From Candidatus Hermodarchaeota archaeon (lineage in GTDB: Archaea; Asgardarchaeota; Thorarchaeia; Thorarchaeales; Thorarchaeaceae), in assembly GCA_048885865.1 (NCBI GenBank), contig JBHLLF010000019.1, positions 14,299 through 40,076 of the forward strand: a DNA stretch of 25,778 nt, read 5' to 3'. The position numbers and the translations under genes are program-made. The notes beneath the pieces are model-generated. The model was given only the letters and a program-made list of their open reading frames with translations, was not told the DNA's origin and searched no databases. Below, in pieces: positions 1,509 through 25,778 of the stretch (position 1 is its first letter; each line of letters begins with the position of its first letter).

Positions 1509-4243
1509 TTTACTTCACCTCCCCTCGAGAGGACAATAGTTGCCCTCATCGCTGCTGCACTCCCAGCTGCAACTGAGTCTGGAATGTCTTTCGGTCCATC
1601 AGAGCATCCGCATGTGTAGATGCCATCTACATCTGCATCAACTGGGTACAGCAACGGGTGTTCAACCTTCACGTATCCATCATTATCAAGTTCAATTCCA
1701 ATGTCATCTGCGAGAATTTGCATGCCTTGTGAAGGTTGGATTCCTCCACTCAAAACGATTAGATCATGCTTGTTCTGCAGGAACTTCAAATCCTCTGTGT
1801 CCTCAACACGAACAATGGCTTTCTCATCCTCGGTCTCCACTACTTCAGCGACTCTGCCTCTGATGAATTTGACTCCAAATCGTGTCTTAGCCATCTCTAG
1901 GAACTCCTCGAAGCCTTTCCCAAATGCTCTAATGTCAGCATAGTAGACGGTGACATCCACATCAGGATCATGCTCCTTGGCCATTACCGCGTTTTTGATA
2001 GAATACATACAACATACTCTTGAACAATTAGGTACTCCTTTGTTCAAATCTCTCGCGCCAACACAGTTGATGAACCCTATTGACTCAGGCGCTTTGCCAT
2101 CACTCAGACGAACTAGATGGCCCGCTGTCGGTCCAGCTGCATTGATCAGGCGCTCGTATTCCATTGCAGTGATCACATTGGGATGTGTCTCATAGCCTAA
2201 ACGCGGATACTCTTTGACATCAAATAGCTTGTAGCCAGTTGACATCACGATTGCGCCCACTTCAAGTTCAATTATTTCATCTTTCTGACTGTGATCAATA
2301 GCTTCACGTTGACATGCTTCAACGCATTCCATACACTCAGAGCACACGGTACAGTTCAGACAACGCCCGGCTTCGAAAATTGCAGTTTCAGCATCAAAGC
2401 CAGTTTCTACCTCCTTGAAGGTTGTCCTTCTGTTGTAGATTGAAATCTTTGGCATTGGTGCTCGTGGATGAACTCCAAACCGTGCTTTTCTGACATCGTC
2501 TGAAGCAAATTCAAGAAAGGTCTCGGGGCGACCTGATTTCAAATCCTCACCTTGGAGGAATCGATGAATTGACTCAGCAGCGGCATTGCCTTGACCTACA
2601 GCCTCGACTACAAGTCCAGGACCAGTAGCTAAATCGCCACCAGCAAAGACATTTTCCATGCTTGTTTGGAGAGTGACGGGGTCGACCACTGGAGTTCCCC
2701 ACTCTGTCACTTCCAATTCAGCATGAGGGCCTTTTGGATCAGCACGCTGACCAATTGCAATGACCATGTTCTCGAATGGAATCGAGAACTCTGATCCAGG
2801 AATTGGTATTGGTCGTCTTCTCCCTGAGTCATCAGGCTCCCCGAGTTTCATCTCAATGCAAGTAACTCCCACGAGTCTCCCCTTGGATTCAATGCATTCT
2901 ACTGGGTTGGTCAGAACTTTCAGTTCGATGCCTTCCTCGAGTGCATCATCGATTTCCGAGTGAATTGCAGGCATCTCTGCTCTCGACCTACGGTAGATGA
3001 TAGTCACATTCTTAACGCCCAGTCGCTTCGCCACTCGAGCTGCATCGATGGCTGCGTTGCCTCCACCAATAACAGCTACATTATAGCCAAGGCGGACTTT
3101 TTCTCCACGGTTGACTCTATCAAGGAAATCAATTGCATGATATACTCCATTTGAATCCTCATTCTTTATTCTTAGTTTGGAGCTAATTGGAGCACCAGTG
3201 CCGAGAAACACAGCTTTGAAGCCTTTGTTGAGAAGACTCTTGATTGAAGTAATTTCCTTTCCGTACAGAATCTTGACACCCATGTCCTCAACTATCTTGA
3301 TTTCATTGGCGAGTACATCTCTTGGGAGTCGATGCGCAGGAATTCCATACCGAAGCAAGCCCCCGGCCTCTTCCCGCTTCTCGAAAATAGTGACTGGGTA
3401 GCCGAGTCTAGCCAGCTTCTCAGCGCATGCAATACCCGCAGGGCCAGCTCCAATGACAGCAACTCTGTCTTTTTTGTCTATGACAGGAGCATCTACCTTG
3501 TAGACACCTTGTTCGCGCTCGTTGTCATAGAGCCATCGGTGTAGATTCCGTATACTGACAGGATCATCAACGGAGCTTCGCTCACACTTCTCTTCACAGA
3601 GCGCGGGGCATACGCGGCCAAGAGAGCCTGGAAATGGGATTGCATCCCTGACCAGCCTCAGTGCCTTTTCATTCTCTCCTCTTCGCATCAGAGCTGTGAA
3701 ACCTTGAGGATTCACATGTGCTGGGCAATTGGTATAACAAGGCGCATGGCCACGCTTGTCGATAGTGTGCGTGTTCGGGGTTGCTTGCGGAAAGGGGATA
3801 TAGATTGCTTTCCTGAATCCGATTCCTTGGTCGAACTCGTTGGGAACCTCTATTGGACAATCAGATACGCAGTCTCCGCAACCATTGCACTTCTCCTCGT
3901 CTACATACCGAGCCTTTCTAAGCACCTTCACCTTGAAGGCCCCTGCACTTCCTTTTACTTCCTGGACCTCACTATAGGTTAGCAAGTCGATGTTTGGATG
4001 GTGCTGCACTTCACTAAGTCGAGGTGTTAAGATGCATGCTGAGCAGTCTAAGGTAGGGAATGTCTTGTCGATCATGGCCATTCGCCCGCCGATACTGCTT
4101 GACTTCTCTAGCAAATACACCTTGTAGTTTTGGTCGGCAATGTCCAGAGCGGCTTGCATTCCTGCAACACCACCGCCCACTACAAGGGCATTTTCAGACC
4201 ACTTGCCTTTCACAGCTCTAGTCCTTGATTTGGACAGGGTCAC
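1505..4243 (-). CDS. hdrA: HdrA'-type FAD/Fe-S subunit with an inserted GltD/NfnB-like NAD(P)H-binding module (HdrL-like); lacks the HdrA N-terminal domain and C-terminal ferredoxin
   Basis: GGGVAGMQAALD, DKTFPTLDCSACIL, CxxCxxCxxxCP, CVGARD...CSRVCC, PKDIPDSV. Insert at about 2350-3760 has PCYTNCP, LGRVCPALCEEKC, GAGPAG, GGLLRYGIP, GGGNAAIDAAR, YRRS, VFAGGD, EAGRCLNC. Confidence 0.93.
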   Translation of the reverse strand: MTLSKSRTRAVKGKWSENALVVGGGVAGMQAALDIADQNYKVYLLEKSSSIGGRMAMIDKTFPTLDCSACILTPRLSEVQHHPNIDLLTYSEVQEVKGSAGAFKVKVLRKARYVDEEKCNGCGDCVSDCPIEVPNEFDQGIGFRKAIYIPFPQATPNTHTIDKRGHAPCYTNCPAHVNPQGFTALMRRGENEKALRLVRDAIPFPGSLGRVCPALCEEKCERSSVDDPVSIRNLHRWLYDNEREQGVYKVDAPVIDKKDRVAVIGAGPAGIACAEKLARLGYPVTIFEKREEAGGLLRYGIPAHRLPRDVLANEIKIVEDMGVKILYGKEITSIKSLLNKGFKAVFLGTGAPISSKLRIKNEDSNGVYHAIDFLDRVNRGEKVRLGYNVAVIGGGNAAIDAARVAKRLGVKNVTIIYRRSRAEMPAIHSEIDDALEEGIELKVLTNPVECIESKGRLVGVTCIEMKLGEPDDSGRRRPIPIPGSEFSIPFENMVIAIGQRADPKGPHAELEVTEWGTPVVDPVTLQTSMENVFAGGDLATGPGLVVEAVGQGNAAAESIHRFLQGEDLKSGRPETFLEFASDDVRKARFGVHPRAPMPKISIYNRRTTFKEVETGFDAETAIFEAGRCLNCTVCSECMECVEACQREAIDHSQKDEIIELEVGAIVMSTGYKLFDVKEYPRLGYETHPNVITAMEYERLINAAGPTAGHLVRLSDGKAPESIGFINCVGARDLNKGVPNCSRVCCMYSIKNAVMAKEHDPDVDVTVYYADIRAFGKGFEEFLEMAKTRFGVKFIRGRVAEVVETEDEKAIVRVEDTEDLKFLQNKHDLIVLSGGIQPSQGMQILADDIGIELDNDGYVKVEHPLLYPVDADVDGIYTCGCSDGPKDIPDSVAAGSAAAMRATIVLSRGGEVK

Positions 4244-17766: not shown

Positions 17767-18129
17767 CTAAAGCACCTGTTCTATAGCATCAACAGCCTTA
17801 TCCATCTCAAAGTCTATCAAGCCTATTTTCGCAGAAGTTGGGGCTGTGGCAATTAAAGAAACCTTGTCAAGTTTTCTCACTATGACCATTTTATTGCTGC
17901 CCTCTATTACGACGTTCTTAGGATTTCCCGACCTTAGTGCAGATCCGACTCGATTGCCGATCGACATCAACGCAGCTGCCATAGCTGAGATTGCCTTGTC
18001 ATCTACATCTTTATGCAGAGCCGCCACCATTAGTTGACCTCTATCAGTAACTAGGGCACTACCATCAACTTCACTATCAGCCTCAAGCTGTTTTAGGATC
18101 TCAGACAGTTCTTTAGTTTTAGCACTCAT
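17767..18129 (-). CDS. Roadblock/LC7 (MglB-like) protein
   Basis: VDGSALVTDRGQLM, AISAMAAALMSIG.RV, VVIEG, AKIGLI; GGAGG ribosome-binding site; close paralog of 24842-25204. Confidence 0.92.
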   Translation of the reverse strand: MSAKTKELSEILKQLEADSEVDGSALVTDRGQLMVAALHKDVDDKAISAMAAALMSIGNRVGSALRSGNPKNVVIEGSNKMVIVRKLDKVSLIATAPTSAKIGLIDFEMDKAVDAIEQVL

Positions 18130-23004: not shown

Positions 23005-23421
23005 CTATTCCTCTAATACAGAGCGAATTTGATTTGCAATAGCTACAAGTTCGGTTTCAGCGCCGATATGTCTCCACCGACCAAATAGTCCCCTTTTGAG
23101 AATAGTATCCCCTTCAAGAACTCCGCCAATGCGAAACCATTGGTCTTTTACTTTGAATTCATGCAGAGATACTGTCACTCCGAAACCTCTGACTGATGCT
23201 GTCTTAGGATGCCCGTATCCTAGATTATCACTGACTCTAACAGCTGTATCTGAAAGAAGAGACACCATTGCAGCAAGTGTTTGATTTGATGATCCATCAG
23301 ATGACTTCCCAGCAACTACCAAGCCTCGTTCGTTGGTTACTACACAGCTCATGAAGCTGCGACCATTATCAATAAGCTCTCCAACAATATCTTGTAGTCT
23401 TTGATGTTTGCCTGTACTCAT
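23005..23421 (-). CDS. Roadblock/LC7 protein (divergent)
   Basis: SCVVTNERGLVVA...LAAMVSLL...RVSDNLG.G; GGAGG ribosome-binding site. Confidence 0.82.
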   Translation of the reverse strand: MSTGKHQRLQDIVGELIDNGRSFMSCVVTNERGLVVAGKSSDGSSNQTLAAMVSLLSDTAVRVSDNLGYGHPKTASVRGFGVTVSLHEFKVKDQWFRIGGVLEGDTILKRGLFGRWRHIGAETELVAIANQIRSVLEE

Positions 23422-23442
23422 TTTTGTTCCTCCGCGTTTTCT

Positions 23443-24108
23443 TCAGGTCACTGTGTCTTCATGGAGCTTCACATCCCAGAGTCCAACAATTTCATTGATT
23501 GCTTTGGCGAGATTCTCAACTTCGAATGTCAAAAGTCCAAGTTGAACGCTACTTGGAAAAATGACAGTCAACATAACATTCTCAGCAACATGTTTCAACA
23601 AGACTGAGAATTGAACATGACCGTTCTCATCATCAGCATCAACCAGAACTTGTCTAAACATGCAAGAAGCATTCACAAGACGGATAAAATCTTCTGAGAT
23701 TGTTATTAGGCCTGCAGACATACTACTGACCACCATCTCAATATTCTCTGGCATAGAATCGTAGAAGAGTCTATGAGCAAGAATATAGCCGTCCACTGTA
23801 AATACAGTCAACCCCCATACTGGAACCTTCATCTCAAACTCTGATAGAAGATCCCGAATCTGGACTACTGGAGGAATAGCATTGTCATCATCAGTAATTT
23901 CTATGTCTCCTGATTGAATCTCCACTTGAGATGATTCTTCAAGGAGGAGTTCCCCATCAATTTCGTTAGACACAGATTCTTCGGGAGCTGAGGTGACTGG
24001 GTCTTCTACATCATCATGTTGATTACGCTCATCTAATATTGAACCATCTTCATCAAGATGCTCCTCCATTTCACCAGGTTCTTCTATTCCAATTCGTTCA
24101 TAATTCAT
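23443..24108 (-). CDS. Roadblock-like protein with an acidic, probably disordered N-terminal extension
   Basis: Residues 1-80 are about one third Asp/Glu; then GLTVFTVDGYILA...VSSMSAGL...RQVLVD...VQLGLLTFEV. Confidence 0.8.
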   Translation of the reverse strand: MNYERIGIEEPGEMEEHLDEDGSILDERNQHDDVEDPVTSAPEESVSNEIDGELLLEESSQVEIQSGDIEITDDDNAIPPVVQIRDLLSEFEMKVPVWGLTVFTVDGYILAHRLFYDSMPENIEMVVSSMSAGLITISEDFIRLVNASCMFRQVLVDADDENGHVQFSVLLKHVAENVMLTVIFPSSVQLGLLTFEVENLAKAINEIVGLWDVKLHEDTVT

Positions 24109-24118
24109 CTCTTACACC

Positions 24119-24781
24119 TCATGATTGTGAAACTACGCTTAATGTGTCACTAGCTACCTCATTTTGAACACAGATTTCCTCTACCTTCTTCAGAAGGAGA
24201 ATCAAGCCAGTCTTTGATGATTCACGATTATTGGCAGATGTACCCACTGCATCAGGAACACCCACCCAGCTTGCTACTTCATCAGGTGAAACAGCATCCG
24301 GCCGGTCTTGCTTGTTTGCGATGGTCACAATAGGAGTTGGCCCAAATGCGGCCTTAGTTTCCGCCAGGATTGCACAAGCGTCTCCTATCATAGCAGGATC
24401 TGAAGAGTCAACAATCATCAGGACTCCATCAGAGTTAGACCTCATTGTGTCTCTGACAAACTTGAAATGTAGTTGACCAGGGACACCACGCAGTTCTATT
24501 TCCTTTGAAATCCATCCCTCATATTCGGAGATTTCTTCCTCATATTCTGCTTTAGGGACAATTAGACCCATATGGGCCAATTCCTTTCGGACCCAAATAA
24601 CACGCCCAAGATCAAAACCTGTTGTCGTGGTGCTTTTCTCACCACGATATTCCTCCTTCATCTCACGCTCTATAGATATAGTGTTGGGATCGAGTGTATG
24701 AATTAGAGTGGTTTTTCCAGCTTGGAAAGGTCCGGTGACATAGATTTTGAAATCATATGATTTTAAATTCCTCGCAGACAT
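24119..24781 (-). CDS. Small GTPase of the MglA/CvnD type
   Basis: G1 GPFQAGKTT, G2 TTTTGFDLG, G3 GVPGQ (no Asp of DxxG, as in MglA/CvnD), G4 NKQD, G5 TSA. Start placed at ATG 24781 (AGGAG upstream); the ORF track start is 24841. Confidence 0.9.
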   Translation of the reverse strand: MSARNLKSYDFKIYVTGPFQAGKTTLIHTLDPNTISIEREMKEEYRGEKSTTTTGFDLGRVIWVRKELAHMGLIVPKAEYEEEISEYEGWISKEIELRGVPGQLHFKFVRDTMRSNSDGVLMIVDSSDPAMIGDACAILAETKAAFGPTPIVTIANKQDRPDAVSPDEVASWVGVPDAVGTSANNRESSKTGLILLLKKVEEICVQNEVASDTLSVVSQS

Positions 24782-24841
24782 CTCATCATAACTCCTTGAT
24801 TCTCCTCTTCCAAGGACTCCATGCAATTTGCATTGAGTCAT

Positions 24842-25204
24842 CTAGAGGATGGACTCTACCTCACTTGTGGCTTTATCCATCTCGAAGTCGATTAAACCGA
24901 TCTTGGCGTCCCGAGGAGCTGTGGCGATAAGCGCAGCACCATTAAGGCTTCGCACAATCACGGTTTTCACATCGCCTTCAATCACGATGTTCTTCGGATT
25001 TCCAGAATCTAGGGCAGATCCAACACGACTTCCTATTGACACCAATGCGGCTGCCATAGCTGATACCGCTTTTTCATCGACTTCCTTGTGTAGCGCAGCA
25101 GCCATGAGCTGGCCCCTATCGCTTACCAGGGCACATCCGTCGACTTCGCTATCAGCCTCTAGTTTCTTGAGTGTGTCTTCAAGTTTCTTTATTTTTGCAC
25201 TCAT
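24842..25204 (-). CDS. Roadblock/LC7 (MglB-like) protein
   Basis: Roadblock motifs; directly upstream of the GTPase, as in mglBA/cvnB-D. Start ATG 25204 has GAGGTGA upstream and matches the paralog's MSAK start. Confidence 0.92.
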   Translation of the reverse strand: MSAKIKKLEDTLKKLEADSEVDGCALVSDRGQLMAAALHKEVDEKAVSAMAAALVSIGSRVGSALDSGNPKNIVIEGDVKTVIVRSLNGAALIATAPRDAKIGLIDFEMDKATSEVESIL

Positions 25205-25215
25205 TTGCATCACCT

Positions 25216-25341
25216 CTATTTCTTTTCGTAGAACTCACACGAGTCCTTCTCTTTCGCTGATACGTAGATGTTCTTCTTTTCACACCAAACTAGCCCTTGT
25301 GCGTTTGCGCCTCCTGCGTACTTACAGTCAGATATAGCCAC
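25216..25341 (-). CDS. Putative 41-aa Cys-containing microprotein MAISDCKYAGGANAQGLVWCEKKNIYVSAKEKDSCEFYEKK
   Basis: Found by manual translation (shorter than anything in the ORF track). Fills the gap between two genes; GGGGTGA 5 nt before the GTG; CKY...WC...CEFY spacing. An alternative in-frame GTG is at 25350. Confidence 0.72.
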   Translation of the reverse strand: MAISDCKYAGGANAQGLVWCEKKNIYVSAKEKDSCEFYEKK

Positions 25342-25346
25342 AGGAA

Positions 25347-25778
25347 TCACCCCAAGGATAAAGTGAAATCACTGGCATTCAGCTCAGGATGGAAAACGCA
25401 CTTGGTTACTGTGCAATGCTTGCCAGTCTTCTCATTCAGTGCCGCGTAGAGAATTGCCATCATTGGACAGGGGGGAATCATGTTTGCATCCCCACCGCGG
25501 ATTATTGTCGTAGCGGGAGCAAAGATACATTCGCCAATATCCATGACTACCTCGTCATCAGATACGCTCACAATATTACATCTCTGCACGGCGCCAGATT
25601 TCTTGATTTCAGATGCAAAAGATTCCACAACAGATCTTACATCATTGCCTTCGATACTCAGCCCGAGCTGACTTAACAAGTCCTTTGCATCACCTTGGAA
25701 TGCATTTGCCATCTGAGTCCAGATGAGCGGAATATCAAGGCCCATGTTCACCATTGCTTCTGCAACTGCAACCATTAC
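25347..25778 (-). CDS. V4R/MetOD1/Bet3-like fold protein, probably 5'-truncated by the window edge
   Basis: VVMDIGECIF...PPCPMMAILYAAL...VTKC...DFTL matches the V4R-type Cys pattern; the frame is open to the end of the window. Confidence 0.65.
   Translation of the reverse strand, partial: VMVAVAEAMVNMGLDIPLIWTQMANAFQGDAKDLLSQLGLSIEGNDVRSVVESFASEIKKSGAVQRCNIVSVSDDEVVMDIGECIFAPATTIIRGGDANMIPPCPMMAILYAALNEKTGKHCTVTKCVFHPELNASDFTLSLG

Follow-up and report, generated by a model that had tools for sequence, protein, structure and literature searches.

A conserved 41-residue three-cysteine microprotein encoded beside a Bet3/V4R-fold protein in an Asgard Roadblock/GTPase operon, with a predicted HiPIP-like fold

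Accessory subunits of glycyl radical enzymes (GREs) adopt the HiPIP fold, bind [4Fe-4S] through a CX2CXnCXnC motif and are seated on a larger partner (PMC12358834). Asgard small GTPases, like the Roadblock and TRAPPC3-like proteins of these archaea, are of interest as forerunners of the proteins that regulate membrane traffic in eukaryotes. According to the study of Thor-TRAPPC3 and V4R proteins, the GTPase genes of MK-D1 as a rule do not share operons with RB, longin or TRAPPC3 genes and the genome layout is uninformative; a term search of that study finds no mention of a small Cys partner (Tran et al., 2024, PMC10933270). Unlike the MK-D1 layout, the locus described here places a gene for a Bet3/V4R-fold protein of 155 aa (U155), a 41-residue Cys microprotein, a Roadblock gene and a small GTPase gene in one conserved run. 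The microprotein resembles the GRE subunits in that it is very small, is encoded beside a larger partner and is predicted to dock on it. It differs from them in that the partner is U155, in a GTPase/Roadblock operon, and not a glycyl radical enzyme; no match to such an enzyme was found among the neighbours in the microprotein cluster, which do include a PAS histidine kinase.

The window, that is, the whole 25,778-nucleotide stretch of DNA analysed (GCA_048885865.1, contig JBHLLF010000019.1, positions 14,299 to 40,076), carries the microprotein gene on the minus strand at 25216-25341, with a GTG start (25341-25339), 41 codons and a TAG stop (25218-25216). As a preliminary description of this DNA had noted, the ORF fills the gap of 133 nt between the Bet3/V4R-fold gene (25347-25778, minus strand; TGA stop at 25349-25347) and the Roadblock gene (24842-25204, minus strand). 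The ribosome-binding signals it described are also borne out. A Shine-Dalgarno-like GGGGTGA (25353-25347), which includes the upstream gene's TGA stop, is separated from the GTG by 5 nt, and equivalent GGxGTGA sites precede the microprotein orthologues. At the other end, base 25216 is both the last base of the microprotein TAG and the first G of the GAGGTGA ribosome-binding site of the Roadblock gene (25210-25216), which lies 5 nt before ATG 25204. An in-frame alternative GTG at 25350 would yield a 44-aa product with 3 extra residues; most orthologues start at the position equivalent to 25341, but the start is uncertain by three codons because the closest relative carries CTG there.

Downstream, the Roadblock/LC7 gene (PF03259, E 5e-11) starts at ATG 25204, which is conserved in orthologues, where the ORF lister had chosen a GTG. 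It is followed by the small GTPase gene (24119-24841, minus strand), with weak matches to Arf, GPN and EF-Tu P-loop families; its listed ORF has 240 aa, and the N-termini of orthologues, some 20 residues further in at a conserved K-S-Y-D-[YF]-K motif, make an internal ATG near 24781 the probable start. Two more genes at 23005-24108 (minus strand) are co-conserved in Thor-type loci; the product of one, 221 aa long, matches nothing in Pfam, and that of the other, 138 aa long, matches Roadblock below threshold. The same co-oriented run holds a second Roadblock gene at 17767-18129 (minus strand), whose identity of about 70% at the DNA level to part of 24842-25204 suggests a recent paralogue. A scan of 24700-25778 found no terminator-like site, and promoter-like sites in the same interval were at chance level.

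Searching the product by tBLASTn against 60 related genomes returned intact matches, free of stops. One genome of the same genus has a match at 86% identity as well as two paralogues, and the remaining matches come from four other genera of the family and from one genome of the same order. Position and Cys residues, the two features for which such a search had been proposed, are both conserved: in every related locus an intact homologue occupies the same syntenic gap, with neither stops nor frameshifts. A scan with one genome per species added 23 loci, from records all named Thorarchaeota, Promethearchaeota/Promethearchaeia or Helarchaeota; metagenome contigs supplied further loci, and Freyarchaeota is the only other named source. 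The dN/dS ratio, also suggested beforehand as a check, is about 0.04 against the nearest orthologue; over codons 5-40, pN ranges from 0.04 to 0.31 and synonymous sites are saturated. Conservation of the amino-acid sequence extends down to 40-45% identity among homologues. In an alignment of 16 sequences (A1), C6, A9, C20, K22, Y26, V27 and C35 are invariant, with W19, K23 and Y38 nearly so. The microprotein gene is thus genuine, under purifying selection and strictly linked to its partner gene, as the earlier placing of a real gene within the GTPase operon had supposed. Its portrayal as hidden from gene callers was overstated, in that a public protein collection already contains the window's 41-aa product (P0002) and NCBI MAG records label orthologues 'hypothetical protein'.

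The family is restricted to Asgard archaea among named records, and it has neither a Pfam model nor a name. A Pfam search with the ORF and 16 family members returned nothing useful, the only signal being a chance-level weak match in 2 of the 16 (E 0.12), and a PDB search with the family profile gave zero matches at E ≤ 10. The family is not described in any paper found, and term searches of papers on Asgard GTPases and TRAPPC3 gave no Cys microprotein; the terms 'Asgard' and 'HiPIP' came up together in no paper of the literature search. No second copy was found in this genome by tBLASTn. In Thor-type loci, a second free-standing paralogue often lies about 230-400 nt upstream of U155, and the 100-N scaffold gap just upstream of U155 in the present genome could conceal such a copy, as present in several Thor relatives.

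To place the protein structurally, we compared its AF2 model (alignment A1; pLDDT 81), which has three short strands and one helical turn, with 48,161 chains in an exhaustive VIA search. Eleven chains reached a Z of at least 2, and among the ten listed, nine are HiPIP-fold [4Fe-4S] proteins and none is a zinc finger. The best neighbours are the GRE small subunits, with the C-terminal domain of HPAD gamma (2y8n chain B) first (Z 4.6, rmsd 1.8 over 38 residues), together with BSS beta/gamma and MASS beta/gamma (Z 2.8 for BSS beta and 2.8 for an MASS small subunit). Five HiPIPs also superpose on the predicted core (Z 2.0-2.5, rmsd 1.6-3.2 over 36 residues). These Z values (2.0-4.6) are low, as expected for 38 residues, and the query is itself a predicted 41-residue model. 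Foldseek against the PDB found no match at E ≤ 0.001, and its sole whole-length hit was the small subunit of 4-hydroxyphenylacetate decarboxylase (E about 2). The HiPIP-fold matches are therefore a lead rather than proof, although the uniformity of the list is notable; the predicted fold resembles HiPIP-type [4Fe-4S] modules more than a zinc knuckle.

Several differences from these proteins should be set beside the likeness. Relative to the GRE subunits, the microprotein shows no detectable sequence similarity, is shorter (a core of about 38 residues) and, like most of its family, lacks the first Cys ligand. Unlike HiPIPs, it gives no HMM match, has neither the N-terminal half nor a signal peptide, carries three Cys instead of four, and is a cytoplasmic protein encoded in an operon with signalling proteins and confined to Asgard archaea among named records. 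The Pfam HiPIP model PF01355 matched none of the 16 family members in hmmscan (E ≤ 10), and a search with PF01355 found no match anywhere in the window's genome. Queries of the ESM Atlas by features and by shape retrieved unnamed clusters and one low-coverage DUF5787 row.

The Cys residues themselves were correctly identified beforehand as C6, C20 and C35, with the spacing to be amended from x11 to x10 (CKY-x10-WC). The absence of the first Cys of a CxxC, also pointed out there, is a real feature of the protein, with Ser4-Asp5 occupying the place of the first Cys knuckle. An exhaustive profile search of 1.84 billion representatives gave 32 matches at E ≤ 0.001; 30 clusters remain once one low-complexity false match (P0041, a 210-aa repeat protein, rejected as a member) and one truncated or frameshifted copy are set aside. 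P0038, a 44-aa metagenome protein that matches the family over residues 1-23 only and diverges completely thereafter, looks frameshifted or mis-assembled. Three Cys are found in 21 of the clusters, and in the other nine a fourth Cys stands just before C6, in seven of them in the form CxxC-x13-C-x(12-14)-C, the kind of motif by which GRE subunits bind their cluster. Distant relatives thus have CxxC or CxC exactly where the window's protein lacks its first Cys, and these four-Cys clusters mark the missing Cys as derived within part of the family. The residue before C6 is Asp in 18 of the 21 three-Cys clusters versus one of the nine with four Cys, the clusters being kin and not independent; this pattern fits Asp replacing Cys as a ligand, and may be plain shared ancestry.

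The three Cys could instead belong to a structural zinc protein, or to one with no metal at all. Here Cys3 with Asp, Ser or water would hold Zn2+ simply to stabilise the protein, a tiny adaptor that bridges the Bet3/V4R-fold protein to others, with no redox chemistry. Stabilisation by Zn is very common among Cys-rich proteins of about 40 residues, and a structural Zn site would easily tolerate the loss of one Cys, as in most members of the family. Fusions to GNAT-like proteins, described below, would suit a domain that serves purely as a docking tag. Structural Zn bound by Cys is also reported for the V4R and Thor-TRAPPC3 proteins themselves (PMC10933270). Set against this, the motif lacks the CxxC...CxxC pairing of zinc ribbons and knuckles; the window's protein has no CxxC, its relatives have at most one, and the other ligands are single Cys. 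The list of structural neighbours, almost only [4Fe-4S] proteins of the HiPIP fold, also argues against zinc. HiPIP clusters are flanked by aromatic residues, and aromatics flank each microprotein Cys (Y8, W19 and F37/Y38). With three Cys, the window's protein does not have the four-Cys C-x2-C...C...C pattern of HiPIPs either, and its C6, C20 and C35 presumably fall where HiPIP ligands 2-4 lie. A three-Cys site without a canonical four-Cys cluster, be it Zn(Cys3X), a thiol switch or a site with no metal, is possible. We consider the structural-zinc or metal-free account unlikely, though a serious contender. Of the small Zn/Fe knuckle proposed at the outset, the three Cys are borne out as invariant, and the predicted fold points to a HiPIP-type module rather than to a zinc knuckle.

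The reading of the protein as a HiPIP-like metal module acquires a predicted partner in U155, whose gene has lost its first ~12 codons to the 100-N scaffold gap (G000:C19:40077-40176) that begins directly after the last base of the window (25778). Beyond this gap a MarR-like wHTH gene is found, as in a related locus (L006). The preliminary description had named the upstream gene V4R, which stands at the level of predicted fold superfamily and not as a Pfam assignment: four U155 orthologues gave no Pfam match at E ≤ 1, V4R (PF02830) included, and a PDB sequence search gave none. Along its entire length, the AF2 model of U155 (pLDDT 92.7) matches TRAPPC3/Bet3 (Z 10-11; Thor-TRAPPC3 7yh2/7yh3, Z 10.2), MopR, PoxR and DmpR through their V4R sensor domains (Z 8.8-9.6, with MopR/PoxR at 9-9.6), and H-NOX (Z 7.5-8.7). 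In these models the Bet3/V4R/H-NOX fold is clearly shared. In its predicted structure, U155 thus has the same fold as Thor-TRAPPC3 and V4R proteins (Tran et al., 2024, PMC10933270), while lacking a sequence-level match to those structures.

Among the Cys residues of U155, C96 and C116 are nearly invariant and the rest variable. Both are kept beside three-Cys and four-Cys microproteins alike, with one exception, a Helarchaeota locus. This locus (L045, Hel_GB_B, 2506-3111) is the only one in which both are Ser, and its microprotein has the four-Cys CxxC form; it is a single case. The possibility that U155 supplies the fourth metal ligand was rejected, since there is no clean pattern of U155 Cys columns against microprotein Cys count.

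The genomic association of the two genes is strict. In 34 of 34 fetched related loci holding both (from Thor-, Loki/Promethe- and Helarchaeota and unnamed metagenome contigs), U155 is followed by the microprotein, separated by at most about 40 nt. Of 151 sampled genomes of the phylum, 12 contain the microprotein; a close U155 (E ≤ 1e-24) is present in just these 12, and the two are adjacent in every one of these genomes for which both coordinates are listed. Ten further genomes have distant U155-like matches only and no microprotein, and one genome (G024) has a second U155 paralogue without an adjoining microprotein. The distribution is patchy: of 26 genomes sampled from the window's family, 8 have the microprotein, as does 1 of 16 other genomes of the genus, and many of the genomes counted are incomplete (62-92% complete for those 16). 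This suggests that the pair is an accessory module, often lost or transferred.

The other members of the run are less constant. A Roadblock gene lies within about 10-35 nt downstream of the microprotein in most loci, and most also have a small GTPase, either within this run or on a divergent arm. Two loci keep U155 and the microprotein without an adjacent Roadblock or GTPase gene, the microprotein being followed by an aquaporin in one (L008) and by a protein with a sub-threshold MIT-domain match in the other (L009), and one contig has the order Roadblock, U155, microprotein. From these loci, U155 emerges as the constant neighbour.

A predicted complex of the two proteins agrees with this. Modelled with a riding 4Fe-4S cluster, U155 and the microprotein gave a median score of 0.61 (runs 0.37, 0.65 and 0.61), and the best of three controls gave 0.00; the score is a model confidence and not a measurement. 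The pass mark used is reached by 58 of 80 solved complexes and by 2 of 110 mismatched pairs, counts that apply only roughly here, given the use of own alignments and of a riding ligand. Contact agreement between the runs was at least 75% and the partner pLDDT at least 79. The predicted interface comprises microprotein residues 13, 15-17, 19, 23-28, 30-31 and 33-34, which include the most conserved of its non-Cys residues, and U155 residues 3-4, 7, 77, 95-97, 99-100, 103-104 and 143-146, among them the conserved Y3, C96 and N146. A HiPIP-fold protein solved in complex with a Bet3-fold protein is not known to us, which makes it unlikely that the pass reflects a memorised structure. The microprotein is thus predicted to dock on U155, and the upstream Bet3/V4R-fold protein, not the GTPase, is its likeliest partner. 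The proposal that the microprotein is an accessory subunit fits the strict adjacency, the genome-level co-occurrence and the control-passing complex prediction.

A real microprotein that instead works with one of the downstream products, Roadblock or the GTPase, perhaps as a GAP or GEF cofactor, would account for the proximity of the Roadblock gene, for the presence of a GTPase in the same cluster in most loci, and for a microprotein stop embedded in the Roadblock ribosome-binding site. It would not account for the two loci that lack both neighbours, for the contig with the Roadblock gene in front, for the co-occurrence with the close U155 subfamily in 12 of 12 genomes or for the predicted U155 complex, which passed its controls, and we regard it as improbable.

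Further evidence on the domain comes from fusions. In eight representative clusters (P0017, P0024-P0029 and P0032), as well as at L028:216-815 (minus strand), the 38-residue Cys domain forms the C-terminus of longer proteins, of 156-475 aa in the clusters. The part preceding it carries, by eye, the R-R-x-G-L-G signature of GNAT acetyltransferases; the longest, P0024 (475 aa), has a long additional N-terminal region. In Loki-type loci the fused gene stands at the end of a divergent GTPase/Roadblock-like arm, beside U155 and a free-standing microprotein. The exhaustive profile search found no fusion to U155, and a word-index search found no longer forms at all; because the fusions are to GNAT-like proteins and not to U155, they provide no Rosetta-stone link to the proposed partner.

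That there is no gene here at all, only a chance spacer frame, an RNA element or the shadow of the opposite-strand frame of 162 codons (plus strand, 24849-25337, overlapping the microprotein), is scarcely credible and effectively refuted by the comparative sequence data: the window does hold dozens of chance ORFs of at least 30 aa, so that an open frame alone is uninformative and conservation is the evidence, but identity persists to 40-45% despite saturated synonymous sites, all orthologues lack stops, GNAT-like proteins carry the domain as an in-frame fusion, Rfam matched no family in 25000-25600, and the antisense strand of the closest relative has only ORFs of 71 and 81 aa, from which the 162-codon ORF is taken as a shadow frame.

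We propose that the microprotein is a HiPIP-like three-Cys metal protein that forms the small subunit of a U155 sensor feeding the Roadblock/GTPase pair, a reading that we hold as a whole with slightly better than even confidence. As a minimal HiPIP-like module, the 41-residue protein would have three short strands and a single helical turn, and its C6, C20 and C35 would hold a metal centre, most likely [4Fe-4S]. The fourth cluster ligand would no longer be Cys, and Asp5 is the candidate replacement. Through a conserved face formed by W19, K22-K23 and I25-Y26-V27, the module would dock onto the upstream Bet3/V4R-fold protein, and as the small subunit of this two-protein sensor it would feed the Roadblock/small-GTPase switch encoded downstream. 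The metal centre, with Fe-S favoured over Zn, the Asp ligand and a redox or gas-sensing role are what we infer. A more specific form of the proposal, which we regard as doubtful, is that a labile [4Fe-4S] cluster held by three Cys and Asp would make the microprotein and the Bet3/TRAPPC3-like protein a redox, O2 or NO sensor of the Roadblock/small-GTPase switch, and that the copy fused to GNAT would bring an acetyltransferase to this platform.

The family is a clean case of a conserved microprotein without a Pfam model, labelled only 'hypothetical protein'. The locus offers a conserved and testable pair, a Bet3/V4R-fold protein and a 41-aa Cys protein, wired to Roadblock and GTPase genes. Should the microprotein prove to contain an Fe-S cluster, the GTPase module would take its input from redox or gas sensing. 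If the more specific form of the proposal is true, it would provide an iron-sulfur input to an Asgard GTPase module built from the folds of the eukaryotic TRAPP and Ragulator regulators.
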